From assembly GCF_006345805.1 (NCBI RefSeq), contig NW_021828363.1, positions 1-8,699 of the forward strand: a stretch of 8,699 nucleotides of DNA, given 5' to 3'. The translations under genes and the position numbers were made by a program. Source of the stretch: Octopus sinensis (taxonomy: Eukaryota). Each line of letters begins with the position of its first letter. The stretch's first letter is position 1. The notes below the pieces were generated by a model, which did not search any database, was not told where the DNA came from, and saw only the letters and a program-made list of their open reading frames with translations. This document shows positions 1 through 8,246 of this stretch, in pieces.

Positions 1-247
1 CTAAAACTTTTATTAAAATCAAACGAAAATAACCTGATAATTAATTAAAATAATTGATAATGAAATTAAGTCGATTTATTCATTTTTTATCAATTTTTTG
101 ATTGAATGAATTTTTCCAAGAGTCGGCAAAAACCGACATCACCAATTTTTCCGATCAATAACGTTTTTTATTATAATTATACAGTTTTTTAGGTCTAACC
201 ATTTAAAAACAAATATTAAAAATTCATGAATTTTTTTACTATATAAA

Positions 248-294
248 CTAGCTCGGCAGCTCGCTTCGCTCACCGCGACCTAGCTCCTGCGGAG
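248..294 (-). other. Helitron 3' terminus: hairpin(s) plus CTAG
   Basis: The minus strand reads CTCC-GCA-GGAG CTAG GTC GCGGT-GA-GCGAAGC-GA-GCTGC CGAG CTAG|T, a GC-rich island in AT-rich DNA. The GCGAAGC core lies 11 nt from the terminal CTAG. Confidence 0.85.
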
Positions 295-361
295 GGCCTG
301 TTTCATCAAACAACTATAATTTTATGTAGATGTATATAAAACTACCTGGTTTAATGTAACC

Positions 362-551
362 CTATTCTATCGCCTGTTGATAAACGATGTTTGTCGTCCG
401 TCCTTCCTTGGCATATATGAATAAATTTTTCTCTTCTGCCTACCCTCGAGCATCCCACATACAGCTGTCCATGTGAAAAGCACTCACTCTCTAAAAATAA
501 CCCAACTACCTTTAATGACTGTCCCTGGGCCTTGTTTATTGTCATTGCAAA
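362..551 (-). pseudogene. C-terminal fragment of Helitron RepHel Pif1-family (SF1B) helicase, frameshifted
   Basis: [38 protein letters not shown] contains Pif1 motifs V/VI. Removing one base from the T-run at 426-430 continues the frame as [24 protein letters not shown] (stop 362-364), matching the usual Helitron ...TxNIVY end. Upstream of 551 is low-complexity sequence, so the Rep domain and most of the helicase are missing. Confidence 0.9.
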
Positions 552-647
552 CTTTTTTTTTCATTTTTGTAGTTTTATTTTTTTATATTTTATTTTTTCA
601 TTTTTCCTTTGTAATTTCCTTTTTTTCTTTTTTTTTTGTTTTTTACT

Positions 648-706
648 GGCGGAAATGGGGCAGGGGAGATGCGGCAGGCGGAAATGCGGCAGGCAAGAAA
701 GCGACA
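648..706 (+). repeat. Short GC-rich tandem repeat, 14-15 bp unit, 3 copies plus a degenerate fourth
   Basis: GGCGGAAATGGGGCA / GGGGAGATGCGGCA / GGCGGAAATGCGGCA / GGCAAGAAAGCGACA. Confidence 0.7.
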
Positions 707-924
707 CACAAAAAAACGACCACCAAAAAAGATTTAATTAATTACCTTATTAAGCTGACCGTTTTTTCTTCAGCTTCGTTTTTCCTCCTTCGGTTATCTA
801 TTTAAAAATTATTTTTTGAATAATAAAAAAGTTAGGAAAAGAGGCATACCGAAAATAAATTCTATCTTTACGAAAAACTCAAGTAAATAGTTAATATTTT
901 TACGCAAATTCTTCTGATTGCGCT

Positions 925-1165
925 GTCAATTGGTGGTAAATTGTGTTAATGGTTTGTGCTAATGTGGTTTCAACAACTATCAAGTGTTTTTCAAAATCTG
1001 TTAATTGCACACTCTATTCAAGGTCGTGCGTCAATTGGTGGTAAATTGTGTTAATGATTGTGCTAATGTGGTTTTCATCAACTATCAAAGTGGTTTTTCA
1101 AAATCTGTTAATTGCACACTCTATTCAAAGTCGTGCAATCTGTGATTGCACATTCTGTCAAAGTC
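925..1165 (+). repeat. Tandem duplication, ~105-bp unit x2 plus a partial third copy
   Basis: GTCAATTGGTGGTAAATTGTGTTAATG...AATCTGTTAATTGCACACTCTATTCAA(G/A)GTCGTGC occurs at 925-1029 and 1030-1136. The stretch 1137-1165 (AATCTGTGATTGCACATTCTGTCAAAGTC) is a diverged copy of the unit's end. Confidence 0.9.
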
Positions 1166-1346
1166 AAATATGATAATAGCTTTAATTTTGATTCATGGTC
1201 GATAATGATATATGCATTTAATTTTAAAGAGAAAAACATAGGATGAATTGAATTTCTTTATCGCGAATAATTGGGAGTTCATCATTGTTAATATTCTCGC
1301 TGTCGTTTTCATCAAGGATATTCTTAATACGTGAGATTTTTGCCTT

Positions 1347-2699
1347 GAAGGTTTTAATGGACCTCATCATGAATGTCGAGGACATTCGCGTTGTTCATTT
1401 TAATCAAAATGCAAAAAATAATTTTTTGATTTTTTGGGGGAAGGTTTTAAGGACTTCATCATGTAAGTCGAGGACATTGTAGTTGTTCATTTTAACCAAA
1501 ATGCAGAAAATTTTTTTTTATTTTTTTTGGGGGGGAAGGTTTTAAGGACTTCATCATGTAAGTGAGGACATTGTAGTTGTTCATTTTAACCAAAATGCAG
1601 AAAATTTTTTTTTAATTTTTTTTGGGGGAAGGTTTTAAGGACTTCATCATGTAAGTCGAGGACATTGTAGTTGTTCATTTTAACCAAAATGCAGAAAATT
1701 TTTTTAAATTTTTTTGGGGGGAAGGTTTAAAGACTTCATCATGTAAGTCGAGGACATTGTAGTTGTTCATTTTAACCAAAATGCAGAAAATTTTTTTTTA
1801 ATTTTTTTGGGGGGAAGGTTTTAAGGACTTCATCATGTAAGTCGAGGACATTGTAGTTGTTCATTTTAACCAAAATGCAGAAAATTTTTTTAAATTTTTT
1901 TGGGGGGAAGGTTTTAAGGACTTCATCATGTAAGTCGAGGACATTGTAGTTGTTCATTTTAACCCAAATGCAGAAAAATTTTTTTTAATTTGTTTGGGGG
2001 GGAAGGTTTTAAGGACTTCATCATGTAAGTCGAGGACATTGTAGTTGTTCATTTTAACCAAAATGCAGAAAATTTTTTTTTAATTTTTTTGGGGGGAAGG
2101 TTTTAAGGACTTCATCATGAAGTCGAGGACATTGTAGTTGTTCATTTTAACCAAAATGCAGAAAATTTTTTTTAATTTTTTTGGGGGGAAGGTTTTAAGG
2201 ACTTCATCATGTAAGTCGAGGACATTGTAGTTGTTCATTTTAACCAAAATGCAGAAAATTTTTTTAAATTTTTTTTTTGGGGGGAAGGTTTTAAGGACTT
2301 CATCATGTAAGTCGAGGACATTGTAGTTGTTCATTTTAAACCAAATGCAGAAAATTTTTTTTAATTTTTTTTTTTTTGGGGGGAAGGTTTTAAGGACTTC
2401 ATCTGTAAGTCGAGGACATTGTAGTTGTTCATTTTAACCAAAATGCAGAAAAATTTTTTTTTAATTTTTTTGGGGGAAGGTTTTAAGGACTTCATCATGT
2501 AGTCGAGGACATTGTAGTTGTTCATTTTAACCAAAATGCAGAAAATTTTTTTTTAATTTTTTTGGGGGGAAGGTTTTAAGGACTTCATCATGTAAGTCGA
2601 GGACATTGTAGTTGTTCATTTTAACCAAAATGCAGAAAATTTTTTTTTAATTTTTTGGGGGGAAGGTTTTAAGGACCTCATCATGTAAGTCGAGGACAT
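1347..2699. repeat. Minisatellite/tandem array, ~93-bp unit, 14 full copies plus a partial 15th
   Basis: The unit GAAGGTTTTAAGGACTTCATCATGTAAGTCGAGGACATTGTAGTTGTTCATTTTAACCAAAATGCAGAAAA(T)nAA(T)n(G)n starts at about 1347, 1440, 1535, 1628, 1721, 1814, 1907, 2002, 2096, 2188, 2284, 2383, 2476, 2569 and 2662. Length variation is mostly in homopolymer runs, and there are no unique spacers. Confidence 0.97.
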
Positions 2700-3194
2700 C
2701 GTATTGCCAATTTGAAGTTGGTGTGCACCACAGACAGACAGAGACAGACACACACCATACCATTTTATTATTAAGATTATTTGGATTTGCATCAATATCA
2801 TGCCTCAGTAGGGCATTCTCTCCTACGGCTAAATCTTCATTAAATTTCCATTTCCGCCTTTTTTTTCCATTTTTTCTCCGGCGAAAACACGGCTTTCATA
2901 CACACTTTGTTGATTCAACCAATCGTCCTCGTTTTCGAAATAATCAGATCCAATTATCTCCGATTGACTTGATTCAACCGCTTCATTTTCATCGAATGAC
3001 AATAACGCCAATCTTATTTCCTCCGGGATTAAATTATTTCCTACCATAAAATTTCGAAAGGTGTCCTCTTGGTCGTTTCATGCTTCGCCATGTTATATTT
3101 ATAAACGATTTCTTGATAGAAGTCTTTATAGCTACCAAAAGACCCATTTGAGGCACTAGTTGAGCTAATCCACCCTTTGATCGATTGATTGAAT

Positions 3195-3221
3195 CTAAAG
3201 ATAAATTTACAAATAACTTAC
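3195..3221 (-). other. Putative 27-nt spliceosomal intron in the integrase gene
   Basis: GAA AG|GTAAGTTATTTGTAAATTTATCTTTAG|A TTC AAT CAA has a consensus GTAAGT donor, a TTTAG acceptor and an in-frame TAA if retained. Splicing restores QGHVERFNQSIK. Confidence 0.85.
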
Positions 3222-3456
3222 CTTTCTACATGACCCTGAATCCCTGTGCTTTAGGGCGTCCACTTATATGTATGATTTTCAGATCATTACACATTGTTTC
3301 CATACATTTGTTCTTAAATTCTTTCCCATTATCCGTCTTTAGAATAAATGGGCGACAAATCATGTAAAAAATATTCTTTATTTTTCTAGTAATTTCCTCC
3401 CCTGATTTCCGCCTGGCAACTGCGAATTTAAAAAATGAGTCTATAACCACAACCAA

Positions 3457-3482
3457 CTACAATTTATACAAAAAGAAATAAC
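3457..3482 (-). other. Putative 26-nt intron in the integrase gene
   Basis: GGA TG|GTTATTTCTTTTTGTATAAATTGTAG|TTG GTT GTG GTT ATA GAC separates ...DNGW from LVVVIDSF. One extra G at the junction (lost by decay or sequencing error) is needed to keep the frame. Confidence 0.55.
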
Positions 3483-3808
3483 CATCCATTATCGCTATTA
3501 AGGCTAGCATACCTTCTTAAATCCACTAAATCTGCAATCGGCGTCCATATAAAAAACATCTATTTGAATATTTTTGATTACTTCAAGTTCATCTTTAGTA
3601 AGGTTGAGTAAAACCATTTCTAAAATATAGATTTGATCAATTATACTTATTATTTTTTCAAATTGGAAAACTTAGATAACCAAAATAAATTGCACGGTAG
3701 ATTAATTTGAAAAAAAACTTTGATAAATTACTAAAATAATTAAGAAAATCAAAAAATCTAATCAAAATTAATTGAAAAAATATTTATTTTTTTAAAATAA
3801 CGTTGAGT

Positions 3809-3847
3809 GGGCATTATCCAACCCAGGGCATTATCCAGCCGGTGACA
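3809..3847 (-). mobile_element. Candidate 5' terminus (TIR) of the integrase-encoding DNA transposon
   Basis: The minus strand reads TGTCACCGGCTGGATAATGCCCTGGGTTGGATAATGCCC. It starts with TGT as in Ginger-type TIRs and has a 12-bp direct repeat (GGGCATTATCCA at 3809-3820 and 3826-3837). It is a GC-rich island about 200 bp upstream of the integrase ATG, directly abutting the truncated hAT gene. The partner TIR is not in the window. Confidence 0.55.
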
Positions 3848-4086
3848 TAATTTTTAGAGAATAATTTCTATCAGCCTTGTTTGGACGAGTTACCCAATGA
3901 TGACTGGTCAATGCAAGTCACTAAAGCATTTATTCAATGCGATATACCCTTGCATAAATTGACTATGCCTCCTCTAAAGAATTTATTCAAGAATACTTCT
4001 TTGCCTCTTCCTTCCCAATACAAAGCAAGAATGTGCGTTAAACAATTGAAAACTGAATATATTGTATTATTTCAAGAAAAGTTTAG

Positions 4087-4110
4087 GTTTATGAATATAT
4101 AATTTTTTAG
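4087..4110 (+). other. Putative 24-nt intron in hAT transposase
   Basis: TTT AG|GTTTATGAATATATAATTTTTTAG|A AAT contains an in-frame TAA (4100-4102). Splicing joins ORF 3881..4102 to the SDEVT-containing frame that runs into ORF 4178..4363. Confidence 0.8.
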
Positions 4111-4352
4111 AAATCAACTTGTATTCGCCATAAGTGACGAGGTCACTATTCGTAGTCAAAAATTTGTTGCAGTTTTAATGGGGATACTTAAAAATCCCAA
4201 TAAAACTTATTTGATTTCTTTCGTAAAAATTGATAAAACTTCTACCAAAGAAACAATTATTCAAATTGTTGACGATACGATTAAATGCGTTTTAATTGAA
4301 AGACAAAATTTCCTTCTCCTAATAACAGATTCCGCTAAATATATGCTAGCAG

Positions 4353-4376
4353 GTTTTATTTAACATATAATTATAG
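4353..4376 (+). other. Putative 24-nt intron in hAT transposase
   Basis: GCA G|GTTTTATTTAACATATAATTATAG|CT GGA AAA contains an in-frame TAA (4361-4363). Splicing gives TDSAKYMLAAGKVLK, matching the family pattern TDxAxYMxxAGxxLK. Confidence 0.82.
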
Positions 4377-4761
4377 CTGGAAAAGTTCTTAAGCTTTTAT
4401 ATCCAAGGTTATTTCACGTAACTTATGTTGCTCATCTGATGCATAATTGTTCAATGAAAATCAGGACTATTATCCTGAAATTGATTCTCTTATTGCATCA
4501 ATTCAAGTGGCAATAACAAAAAATAACAAGAGAAAACGACTATTTAATGAAATTGGAATTCCACCTCATGTAGTTTTAACTAGATGGGTACTTGGCTAAC
4601 TGCTGCATTTTATTATGCAAAAAATTTAATACATGTGATAAACATTTTCAAAACAATTCCTGATGATGGAATCATTGTTCAGGCTGCAAAAAATAGCCTA
4701 AGAGATGAATCTCTAGTAAAAAGCTTAAGTTCTATTGTTAGAAATTATTCGACAATTCCAG

Positions 4762-4785
4762 GTAAAACTAGTTTAATAATAGCAG
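4762..4785 (+). other. Putative 24-nt (or 21-nt) stop-free intron in hAT transposase
   Basis: CCA G|GTAAAACTAGTTTAATAATAGCAG|AA TTA has a GTAA donor, TAAT and a tandem TAGCAG acceptor. It is hidden in ORF 4584..5105 because it is in frame with no stop. Removal gives NYSTIPELLCKFE. Confidence 0.6.
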
Positions 4786-5111
4786 AATTATTGTGCAAAT
4801 TTGAAAGTTCTCACTCCTCAATAGAGTTAGCTTACAATGAGCTAAAGAATTTAAAATTTGACGACGAATCAGATATAATTGAAAAATATTTGAATGAACG
4901 ATTACAAAAAAATGATTTATGTCAAATTATAAGAATGACAAATTCATCAATTTCTCCTGAAGAATATTGTATGCTTTTAAAGTGTCAGCCTTCATCCTCT
5001 TCAATAGAACGATGCTTCTCTCAAATTAAAAACTTTATGAGGGATAACAGAAATTTTAATATTGAAAATATAGAGAATTATGTTATATGTTTGTATAATA
5101 AATGATTCTTA

Positions 5112-5234
5112 AGTTAAAATTTGTTAGGTTAAAATTTTTGTTTTATAGGTTAAAATTTGGTTATTTTTAGGTTAAAAAGTTAAAATTTTTAGGTTAAAAA
5201 ATCGAAGTTTTTAGGTTAAAAAAAAATTGCACTA
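5112..5234 (+). repeat. hAT 3' subterminal repeats and probable right terminus
   Basis: About seven copies of (TAG)GTTAAAA follow the transposase stop and end in ...AAAATTGCACTA. The reverse complement starts TAG, compatible with a hAT terminus. The exact end cannot be confirmed without the left TIR. Confidence 0.65.
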
Positions 5235-5245
5235 GTCATTATTAA

Positions 5246-8234
5246 GAAAGAAACTAATTAACTAAGTAATTTTACTAACTAAGTCCAGAGCCTTCGAAGT
5301 GAGCAGAAGGCGGCACTCCACGCACCTCCTCCCCTTCTTCCTCCTCTTCTCTGGCACTGTAGACCTTCGAGAAGGTGCAGTCCAGCGCCTCTTGCTGACT
5401 AAACGTCAGGAAAGGGCTGGATCGGCGAGCATCAAACGAGACACTCTCCAGAGTCCTCTTAAGAACAGTTGACTGTATATAAGCCTGTAGAGACTTATCT
5501 ACATCCAACTGTCTTAAGTACCGCTTGTGGTATTTGGTGACCAGTCCATCCCATGTCATCACACACGGGATGACATGGACTTTGCACTGGTGCATCAGTC
5601 CTAGCTCGTTTGCAAGGAGGTCATACTTCCTCCTTTTCTCCACTTCCACTATCTGCAAACGGTCTAGGCACGTGATGCCCACCTCCACGATAACAATCTC
5701 CCCGGTGACCTTATCGTGGACCACAATGTCGGGTCTGTTGTGCTGGACAACAATCGAGGTGCGTATGGGGGTATCCACCTTAATGCACACCCGCGAGTTC
5801 TCACACACCGATTGAACTCGATGGGTTCGCAACTTTCTGGACCGCCTCAAGCCGTACTTATTGCAGAGCAAAAGATGGAGGGACCTCACCACCTCGTTAT
5901 GCCTCCATGTGTAATCATGGTAAAGCATACTCCCGCACTTCGTGGCTAAATGGTCAACGGTCATTGCCTTACTCTTACAGTGGTTACACTGTTTCCGTTG
6001 ACCATTAAAAAAGTTTCTATCCTGCAAATATGAGAACAACCCTTCTGATCGGGGAGAGTTATTCCCATATTTCAGCCACGTAGATGACGACGATACGTCA
6101 ATGTGCGGGTTGTCCAGGCTGCTAAAGAGAGTCTTGTGAAGGACTTTTAAGTTGATCTTTTTAATTAAAGACTCCTTTTGAAGTTTGATCAACTCCTTCA
6201 CATTAACTTGGGTAGCACCTAGACCATACTTAGCCGACACATAGCCTTTTATGGTTCCTAGGTGTGTACCACGCGCTTTTTCAGCAGCAAGGATGGCAGC
6301 CTTCCTTTGGGATACACTCGACCCACTCCACAAGGTGTCGTGCATCTTAGTAAGAATTCGCTCACTTAAGTGTACGATGTTACTCAGTCCACGTCCTAGC
6401 TGCCCGCGAGACAAGTACAATCTCTCCTTATTGCTTGCCAACACGTGGACATGATTCTCTCGGAGTACTCTTCGGACAATAAGGTCCATTTCATCGTACT
6501 CACTCGGCTCGAATTCGATCAGGCCAACGTAGTAGTTTAGCAATGAGATGGCATACTCGTTCAAGGCATGAAATAAGTTCCGTGCATTGAGCCAAGTCTT
6601 ACATAACATTGCCGCCCTACTACGCACACCCTCCACTACACACTTTCTCGTTTCGGGTGTGATTAATGAGGCTGGACTCTCAACCACACCAAGATACTTA
6701 TATCCTTGGTGTTCCTCCAAGACTTTGACTAGGTCACCGCACACAGGGGTGTTAGTCGCCGACTTGTCGTAGTTGAGCTCCAACCCCACGGCCTTCATGA
6801 AACCTTTCAGGACTTTACCCATTGAGTGGAGGATCTCTGAAGACCGAGCGAACAGCTTAATGTCGTCTATGAACATGAGATGGTTGGTGCTAAAACACCC
6901 TCCTTCATGTTCGATCGACATTTGTTCGAATTGGGCAGTGAGGACTCTACTCAGCGGTTCTAGGCAGAGGACGAACAGCAGCGGAGACATGCTGTCGCCC
7001 TGTAATATGCCCCTCTCTAGTTTCACCTCGCCTATATCGCATTTGTTGTAATTTAGATGGACGTTCCACCTGTCCATCACAGTTGCAACAAATTTGATAA
7101 ACCACATTGGCAACTTAAGCCTTCGCAGACACTCAACGAGGTAGGCATGATCAACCGAGTCATATGCCTTCTTCACATCCACCCACATTGACACTAGTGA
7201 GTTTCCGTGGGCTCTCGCGAGGCATTTGTTGATCAGTGCCTGCTCCTTAGCTCCCTGGCAATCCCGCCGAGTACCTAACTGGTTCTCGGACAGAATCCCA
7301 TTCACCTCCACGAAATTTCTGACCTCAGTAGCCACCCCCTTAGTCATCAACTTGTACAGGTTGGGCATACAGGTTATCGGACGATAATCTGTCGGAGCGG
7401 AAGGGTTATCTACTTTAGGGATCAAATAAGTGACCCCAGTACATAACCACTCTGGAATCGAGCCAGGGTCTAGTGTAAACTGTTCGATTGCTCGACACAT
7501 GCAATCATGGATAGGTTTGCAATTTTTAATAAAGAAATTATACACTTTATCGACCCCAGGTGTCTTCCAGTCAGAGAGACGGGTTACTGCTTCATCGAAC
7601 TTCTTGCGGATGTCAGAGACACCACAAGACTCGGTCATCAAGGGAGCATCGGGTCCACAAAACGGAAACGACACACCCTTGCGAGGACGTGCTTTCCACA
7701 TACTCCCCCATGTGTCAAACATTTCGGCCATTTGCTGGGTACCCTCCTTCGTCTCTCCGTGCAACCGACGATAGAACGACCTGCGATTAAATTCAAACAG
7801 GTTGTTCTCCCGCCTGCGCTGACACCGAGACTCATGAGTTGAGAGCTTCTTCTGATAAACGAGAATCAGCTCCTCCCTCTCTGCCCGGACACGCCTCAAC
7901 TCGTTGAGGTCCCATTTGGCAGCTCGTTCCCGACGAAGTAAAGTACGCACCAAGGGGGGAGTCTTGCCCTTGACCCCATTGCTCACATTCAAAATGTGCC
8001 CAGTCAGCGCTTCCAGCTCGGCTTTCCTTGCGGCTACTTTTGCGGCAATGTTTTCTCTCCATCTACTCTTTGGGGCAGGCCTCTGAGTGATTTCATCATA
8101 GGTTGTCTGTGCCGAGTACAAATAGAGAGAAATCTCGTCCATTGTCTCCGGAGGCTCACGCACGATCGCGTAAGCTATGGCACGATTGATGCAACCCATC
8201 ACGTCACTTCTGAGTTGCCCACCGAGTATCTTAC
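5246..8234 (-). mobile_element. Non-LTR retrotransposon with restriction-like endonuclease (R4/Dong-like clade), 5'-truncated
   Basis: It has a single RT-CCHC-RLE ORF and a sharp composition shift (one sampled line 31/60 GC, versus 8/60 and 18/60 in flanking lines). The reading frame stays open upstream of 8202 to the AT-rich junction (KILGGQLRSDVMGCIN), indicating 5' truncation. The 3' UTR is very short. Boundaries are approximate. Confidence 0.9.
5275..8202 (-). CDS. Reverse transcriptase with C-terminal CCHC zinc knuckle and PD-(D/E)xK restriction-like endonuclease (N-terminally truncated)
   Basis: RT motifs are WKTPGVD, YRPITCMPNLYKL, WVDVKKAYDSVDH, RGILQGDSMSPLLF, HLMFIDDIKL and YKYLG. 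The zinc knuckle is CNHC-x8-H-x4-C, followed by RHNEV and the endonuclease NRPDIVV...IVEVGIT...EKRRKY. The ORF runs 975 codons without stop or frameshift. Confidence 0.95.
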   Translation of the reverse strand: MMGCINRAIAYAIVREPPETMDEISLYLYSAQTTYDEITQRPAPKSRWRENIAAKVAARKAELEALTGHILNVSNGVKGKTPPLVRTLLRRERAAKWDLNELRRVRAEREELILVYQKKLSTHESRCQRRRENNLFEFNRRSFYRRLHGETKEGTQQMAEMFDTWGSMWKARPRKGVSFPFCGPDAPLMTESCGVSDIRKKFDEAVTRLSDWKTPGVDKVYNFFIKNCKPIHDCMCRAIEQFTLDPGSIPEWLCTGVTYLIPKVDNPSAPTDYRPITCMPNLYKLMTKGVATEVRNFVEVNGILSENQLGTRRDCQGAKEQALINKCLARAHGNSLVSMWVDVKKAYDSVDHAYLVECLRRLKLPMWFIKFVATVMDRWNVHLNYNKCDIGEVKLERGILQGDSMSPLLFVLCLEPLSRVLTAQFEQMSIEHEGGCFSTNHLMFIDDIKLFARSSEILHSMGKVLKGFMKAVGLELNYDKSATNTPVCGDLVKVLEEHQGYKYLGVVESPASLITPETRKCVVEGVRSRAAMLCKTWLNARNLFHALNEYAISLLNYYVGLIEFEPSEYDEMDLIVRRVLRENHVHVLASNKERLYLSRGQLGRGLSNIVHLSERILTKMHDTLWSGSSVSQRKAAILAAEKARGTHLGTIKGYVSAKYGLGATQVNVKELIKLQKESLIKKINLKVLHKTLFSSLDNPHIDVSSSSTWLKYGNNSPRSEGLFSYLQDRNFFNGQRKQCNHCKSKAMTVDHLATKCGSMLYHDYTWRHNEVVRSLHLLLCNKYGLRRSRKLRTHRVQSVCENSRVCIKVDTPIRTSIVVQHNRPDIVVHDKVTGEIVIVEVGITCLDRLQIVEVEKRRKYDLLANELGLMHQCKVHVIPCVMTWDGLVTKYHKRYLRQLDVDKSLQAYIQSTVLKRTLESVSFDARRSSPFLTFSQQEALDCTFSKVYSAREEEEEGEEVRGVPPSAHFEGSGLS

Positions 8235-8246
8235 AAAAAAATGTTT

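Follow-up and report, generated by a model that had tools for sequence, protein, structure and literature searches.

The window, that is, the whole stretch of 8,699 nt that was analysed, carries the remains of an integrase-type transposase on the minus strand, which are split by a Helitron-like insertion, followed by most of a hAT transposon on the plus strand and the frame of a non-LTR retrotransposon (Table 1).

Table 1. Features of the window, with predicted introns numbered by their site in the transposase of relative P0002 where such a number applies
Feature	Positions	Strand	Remarks
3' non-coding part of Ginger copy	1..247	-	right inverted repeat cut off by contig start
Helitron-like insertion splitting Ginger copy	248..2776		helicase C-terminal piece 351-560 (weak matches); 93-nt tandem array 1347-2703
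Transposase remains, broken	2776..3617	-	ATG 3617; D 3532-3530, D 3333-3331, E 3226-3224; rve PF00665
Predicted intron, site 239.2	3195..3221	-	27 nt, phase 2; donor GT in window copy, GC in the majority
1-nt loss, frameshift	3244..3246	-	~22 nt upstream of the 27-nt intron; not in siblings
Predicted intron, site 158.0	3457..3481	-	25 nt, phase 0; window copy has a mutated donor, TT
Junction of ~390-nt internal deletion	3536..3541	-	H2C2 finger and introns 76.0 and 116.0 gone
Left terminal inverted repeat	3807..3847	-	begins TGTCAC; extent of match given in text
One side of presumed 5-bp target duplication	3848..3852		inside first 27-nt hAT intron; other side beyond contig start
hAT, 3' three quarters, young	3848..5233	+	~99% identical to siblings
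Predicted hAT intron	4087..4110	+	24 nt, phase 2
Predicted hAT intron	4353..4376	+	24 nt, phase 1
Predicted hAT intron	4762..4785	+	24 nt, phase 1, stop-free, in frame
Non-LTR retrotransposon frame	5275..8244	-	989 aa, RVT_1

An earlier sequence-only reading of this DNA took the integrase-type gene for a DNA transposon of the Ginger kind rather than the remnant of an LTR retroelement, and the inverted ends and 5-bp target duplications of its copies bear this out. A search of the window's own genome assembly (G000) gave at least 91 matches, with 40 of 170 candidates scored; a second search of G000 scored 150 of 1839 candidates. The repeats at the ends of copies read TGTCAC...GTGACA, and the termini across families are TGTCAC or TGTGAC, both of which fit TGTNR. 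In the window's family the inverted repeats match closely over ~41 bp and loosely, at 83%, over ~65 bp; across families they measure 26-71 bp, at the low end of the ~45-300 bp of Ginger2/Tdd. Perfect 5-bp AT-rich target duplications flank 13 of 14 distinct two-ended copies (30 loci), and the end calls across families gave 5 bp in 20/30, none in 8/30, and 6 bp and 3 bp in 1/30 each.

Four tiny introns interrupt the gene of the longest copy (L009, 1904 bp), whose product has an H2C2 finger and a D-D(35)-E core. The H-H-C-C and D-D-E residues are present in L009 and L071, rve was found in L008 and H2C2 in P0001, and neither RT nor RNase H was found. Whole elements measure 1.8-2.1 kb between the inverted repeats, which leaves no space for RT beside the stand-alone gene. 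GPY/F and YPYY motifs, judged by eye, are absent from the predicted proteins; they have a C-terminal region resembling an integrase tail, without the literal motif. Features of Ginger1 are lacking, since the targets are 5-bp and AT-rich and the proteins of ~410 aa have no OTU/Ulp1 tail. Those of an LTR integrase are lacking as well, since the gene stands alone between inverted repeats and not in a pol with RT. The element shows all of the Ginger2/Tdd features examined from Bao et al., and its trees were built with unnamed relatives, the searches having returned no named reference for Ginger, TDD, or Polinton. Searches of the atlas for the window's transposases returned only generic integrase and hAT clusters.

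Judged from its sequence, the window copy is dead, with ~390 nt missing, frameshifts, and a dead donor in its second intron; the sequence-only reading had overlooked this damage. The large deletion, at 3538, is common to 11 of 52 loci; further damage consists of a 9-nt loss near 3419 and a frameshift near 3050. The copy interrupts the first 27-nt intron of a hAT whose identity to its siblings is ~99%, so its move appears to be recent. A helper transposase would move intact and deleted copies alike, and the window copy would have landed recently in the intron of the young hAT, to be split later by another insertion. This insertion, which we take to be Helitron-like from its motif, is ~2.5 kb long and has a helicase tail, a 107-nt duplication, and ~14 copies of the 93-nt repeat; inserts resembling it were seen in L005, L016, L024, and L226.

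The 27-nt segment at 3221-3195 (minus strand) runs from GTAAGT to TTTAG in phase 2 and splits the Arg codon after the catalytic E (HVE-R|FNQ), and its retention brings an in-frame TAA into the reading frame, both as the sequence-only reading had described. A 26-nt segment had also been proposed between DLVD and VIDSF. A tiny intron does lie there, but the proposed borders (3482-3457) were one base off: excision of 3482-3457 leads to a stop six codons downstream, whereas excision of 3481-3457 regains the frame NGW|LVVVIDSF. The donor of this intron is GT in 20 of 24 matched family copies, TT in three (the window and two siblings), and CT in one (52 loci examined), and the base that restores GT at 3481 is present in all six public contigs covering it (runs X2-X4). 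The 841-nt transposase stretch contains 32 GT..AG segments of 22-33 nt as a chance background; since such pairs are common by chance, the case for both introns rests on family comparison.

For this comparison, 97 loci were aligned to a profile by a purpose-written spliced aligner; 70 were covered well enough, and de-duplication at 90% left 26. The aligner accepts only GT/GC-AG introns of 19-45 nt (19-60 for CCT genes), so that the range of sizes is in part a product of its settings, and stray calls arise in the variable linker. Sites are numbered by P0002 positions. Twenty-two families, with proteins 51-88% identical, share four intron sites, and a clear intron is present in 16 of 18 covered families at site 76.0, 16 of 20 at 116.0, and 20 of 22 at each of the window's two sites, 158.0 and 239.2. 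At the latter two, the remaining two families each have unresolved extra DNA at the site. Site 116.0 is missing from three families, and most of the other cases without a clear intron are unresolved extra DNA. Both window segments stand above chance because the same site and phase recur in 20/22 families each, at 22-33 nt and with unrelated sequences.

The 77 family introns measure 22-33 nt with a median of 26, against a median of 26 for 58 CCT introns of the host (p=0.84). They are 79% AT and divide into three length classes of 25, 23, and 29 introns; introns at the same site are no more alike than those at different sites (0.354 vs 0.344). Their style is that of dicyemid introns (GT-AG, median 26-27 nt, weak signals), with a range partly set by the aligner. 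The continuous relatives P0001-P0003 have zero residues at the four intron sites. Calls at 129.0, 137.2, 286.2, and most of those at 304-349 (open frames or variable linker) were not counted as introns. At site 318.2 of L071, the variable linker contains a GT-AG segment of 36 nt, called in 11 loci of one family, that is either intron or coding. L142, which seemed intron-poor, proved to be a degraded alignment and was left out of later trees and counts.

It is barely credible that the segments are coding insertions or products of decay. The frame of L008 does run for 275 aa straight across the 27 nt, and the automatic gene models P0004 and P0006, filed under Octopus sinensis, translate such segments. 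Contigs from four runs, of unrecorded kind, carry both segments unspliced, with no spliced read seen and no joint at any of five predicted introns; none of the runs listed as carrying the stretch is on record as RNA. However, 52 of the 77 segments are not multiples of three and 21 others contain stops; all lie at fixed sites with GT/GC-AG ends, and without them the frames of L071, L112, and L136 run unbroken over their full length. A presence/absence check of the 27-nt intron among genomic copies, as the sequence-only reading had proposed, gave 0 matches to joined flanks vs 12 with the intron, so precise loss was not found. Twenty 10-kb host-gene flanks held no young transposon copy suited to a combined RNA test. 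Eight other runs that share the species label of the best-matching run contain next to none of the stretch's words, which is no proof of absence and carries no weight here. Both tiny introns, as predicted from the family alignment, are very likely real, and their size is the norm of the host. Intact copies (such as L071, L112, and L136) would be transcribed, and the host spliceosome would remove all of the introns constitutively.

The TAA in the 27-nt intron had been put forward as a possible splicing-dependent control, an idea that family comparison does not sustain, since most copies have a GC donor and no stop and 73/77 family introns would break the frame if retained. In the window's family, the donor at 239.2 is GC in 13/21 copies, GT in 5/21, and AC in 3/21, and GC-donor copies read the 27 nt as nine residues without a stop. 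Four of the five GT-donor copies belong to the deleted subfamily and, because of their large deletion, cannot encode the enzyme. A GTAA donor occurs at this site in just 2/20 families, and the TAA appears to be a by-product, since it is spelled by a GTAA donor in phase 2. Because retention of 73/77 introns would break the protein, the 239.2 intron is not special.

A regulated switch at the catalytic E, in which retention stops the enzyme as in the third intron of the P element, is improbable. Retention control is established for the P element (cited in the accessible part of PMC4158355), retention in the window copy does bring in the TAA, and the usual GC donor of the family is a weaker one that may be spliced less often. 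Against the switch stand not only the stop-free GC copies and the frame-breaking introns, with three sites upstream of E, but also the window copy itself, which is frameshifted just upstream of the 27-nt intron and has no zinc finger; in addition, CACTA transposases are reported to have intron borders near the DDE glutamate as well (PMC4158355, in part). GC-AG donors were seen both at site 239.2 of the transposon and in the second intron of the host CCT gene L031. The GC donor of the transposon retains the full AG|GCAAGT context, and host donors are otherwise weak.

G000 contains two sets of CCT and ATP-synthase genes: a long-intron set on C1-C23 and a compact set on small scaffolds. The window's family has copies on four scaffolds that bear compact CCT genes (C8459, C8693, C1794, and C8702), and among the matches listed in the Ginger and hAT searches of G000, none lies on C1-C30. 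The intronless ATP synthase beta gene on C8694, a scaffold that also bears the intron-carrying Ginger copy L156, is 98% identical over 414 aa to that of Dicyema acuticephalum, and other full-length matches are 65-84% identical; two matches outrank it by score but cover just 38% and 66% of the query. In D. acuticephalum this gene is described as intronless (PMC2222250, in part). A myxozoan or microsporidian source, the first idea, was ruled out by the 98% match. Seven compact CCT genes have 58 predicted introns with a median of 26 nt, L033 and L037 being left out of the count as duplicates. For dicyemid introns, the accessible parts of earlier studies give a median of 27 bp (PMC6543705), a mean of 26.2 (PMC2222250), and a splice donor reduced to GTa (PMC13644364).

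Since the named close transposase matches are filed under Octopus sinensis, G000 is likely to be octopus together with a co-sequenced Dicyema. The window's host is judged from its siblings, since its own contig bears no housekeeping gene, and the window DNA is likely that of a dicyemid, a minute parasite of the kidney, that was sequenced along with the octopus. CCT genes occur twice on parasite scaffolds (L032/L033 and L031/L037); as exons and introns both differ between L032 and L033, mixed haplotypes or two Dicyema species are possible. In the literature searched, with most subscription papers, Repbase, and supplements outside its scope, nothing was found on Dicyema transposons or on this contamination.

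That the element might instead belong to the octopus, or be what is left of an LTR-retroelement integrase, is very improbable. The only named close proteins are indeed those filed under the octopus; however, none of the listed family copies is on the chromosomes, and chromosomal genes carry long introns. Distant matches do include retroelement polyproteins, but the four polyprotein matches score 110-122 bits, against as much as 382 bits for transposases that stand alone and 231 for a single fused model, and the whole elements, with their inverted repeats and 5-bp duplications, have no room for RT. The window copy is best regarded, with good confidence, as a broken, non-autonomous representative of a 1.9-kb Ginger2/Tdd-like transposon, likely of a Dicyema co-assembled with the octopus, whose segments are predicted to be ordinary spliceosomal introns of the host's size (22-33 nt).

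The 22 families form one group (97/91; SH 95), which is surrounded in the tree by 73 added database proteins whose frames are continuous. G000 also has intronless families with frames of 397-418 aa, which are placed elsewhere in the tree, and a clade of all G000 families is rejected at p-AU 2e-41 in a test whose groups were named after a first tree had been seen. Two sites are restricted to tips: 194.1 is present in 1/22 families, and 356.2 in 4/12 covered families, all in one subclade. The metagenomic locus L296:220-2140 holds a closely related element that ends in the same motif and shares 49-56% identity with the dicyemid families, and it has introns of 31, 256, 28, and 36 nt at 49.0, 107.0, 237.0, and 331.1, with none at the four sites. 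In the best tree it lies inside the dicyemid clade on a long branch (90/91), and a sister position is not rejected (p-AU 0.35). The host of L296 looks to be another short-intron, AT-rich eukaryote. Among 79 other metagenomic loci (24-35% identical), eight have an intron call and zero have one at the four sites; a common weak call of 72-91 nt at 270.1 was seen in the distant loci L340, L344, L346, L362, and L371.

It is somewhat more probable than otherwise that the clade descends from an intronless ancestor, acquired the four introns on its stem, and added others later in subclades. Since then the intron sequences would have changed completely, with site, phase, and length conserved. The introns could alternatively be old, derived from an intron-bearing ancestor in an earlier host, shrunk in dicyemids, and lost in the intronless relatives, which is rather unlikely. 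For CACTA transposases, loss is described as the prevailing process (PMC4158355, in part), three families are without site 116.0, the hAT introns favour neither gain nor loss, and L296, if truly nested, lost all four sites. The continuous outgroups, moreover, came from collections favouring intronless genes or transcripts, by which gain may be overstated. However, an old origin requires several complete losses, in the L162/L164, P0256, and L165 lineages; 194.1 and 356.2 are confined to tips; and L296 shares none of the four sites yet has four introns of its own. The simplest reading of these sequences is likely to be separate gains, in the dicyemid Ginger clade and in L296, from an intronless ancestor.

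The hAT on the opposite strand shares the tiny-intron style and the adjacent retrotransposon is free of introns, its 989-aa frame being uninterrupted; both points had been noticed before. What had been missed is that this style is the ordinary intron size of the dicyemid host. Copies of the hAT have 8-bp target duplications in 5/5 cases checked, and the intact copy L181 (364-2152) has four predicted introns of 24-27 nt. The family is young, 1.79 kb long, with copies ~99% identical, and likely active on this sequence evidence. Related hAT families have three intron sites in common, one clade (100/99) is distinguished by site 386.1, and introns are absent from five sampled hAT loci where these are well covered. 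The intron at 4762-4785 is retained in one contig of run X8 (kind unrecorded). A Pfam search of two hAT pieces gave no match.

Merlin transposases on parasite scaffolds have introns of 21-35 nt, three to six each, at six recurring sites; seven chromosomal Merlin loci have open frames of 317-352 aa and are intronless. Loci L026:78-790 and L246-L295 carry 3-6 tiny introns in ~300 codons. The literature search returned nothing relevant on Merlin introns.

Intron numbers in the Dicyema superfamilies are 3-5 for Ginger2-like, 3-4 for hAT, and 3-6 for Merlin transposases. We tentatively propose, as a possibility held with less than even confidence, that transposases in a tiny-intron host repeatedly acquire introns of 22-35 nt until they reach a host-like density, that at least three superfamilies have done so in Dicyema, that newer arrivals are still intronless, and that the same Ginger lineage gained a different set elsewhere. 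If so, the transposons would be a fast and datable record of intron gain in an animal noted for intron shrinkage. The gain might even have been selected, if spliced transcripts escaped silencing or were better exported; intron-bearing genes are protected from silencing in human cells (PMC8770142, in part), which serves here as an analogy only. In the literature searched, within the scope given above, repeated acquisition of tiny introns by transposons was not found described.

The origin of minimal introns becomes testable on many young, near-identical copies, because one small genome contains, across superfamilies, transposase families with introns and others without. Parasite transposon proteins also stand in public databases as octopus genes: P0004, P0006, P0011, P0256, and P0257 are filed under Octopus sinensis and are in fact transposon pieces of the parasite group. 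P0004 and P0006 include tiny introns as residues, and the aligned core of P0257 is identical to that of L164. Overall, the comparison suggests that these transposons acquired introns in the style of the host and do not use them as a special switch, and the finding is explained by two known things, namely that Ginger elements can have introns and that dicyemids have 26-nt introns.

Among known systems, Tdd-4 has introns, and intronless relatives of the window's family are named KRBA2-like at NCBI. KRBA2 is derived from Ginger2 (PMC3575427, in part). As described in the accessible part of PMC2836005, Ginger2/Tdd elements resemble the window's family in their TGTNR ends, short inverted repeats, AT-rich targets, H2C2 and DDE motifs, and lack of GPY/F or YPYY, and TDD-4/5 share the 5-bp target duplication. 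However, they are 2.7-6.7 kb long as against 1.8-2.1 kb for the whole elements described here, a 4-bp duplication is listed for animal Ginger2 where the window's family has 5 bp, and the Ginger2 table in that part gives no intron numbers, whereas the elements described here have three to five introns of 22-33 nt. Ginger1, in the same source, also has an integrase-like transposase with 0-4 introns, including one GC-AG, at sites common to families; its 4-bp CCGG/CCGT targets, YPYY, GPY/F, and OTU/Ulp1 domains were not seen in the window's family (PMC2836005).

Dicyemid miniature introns, as far as the accessible parts of four studies describe them, are like those of the transposon in their median of 26-27 nt, weak GTa donor, and AG acceptor; however, they were described in host genes, with old conserved sites in Pax6 and Zic, whereas here they lie in mobile transposases at sites absent from relatives (PMC6543705, PMC2222250, PMC6736024, PMC13644364). 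Plant CACTA and mariner transposases likewise have intron sites conserved at the family level, some of them at the DDE glutamate, with occasional gain. In the part of that work that could be consulted, loss prevails and the introns are of normal size, whereas in the present case the introns are tiny, occur at host density in three superfamilies, and gain appears likelier for the Ginger clade (PMC4158355).
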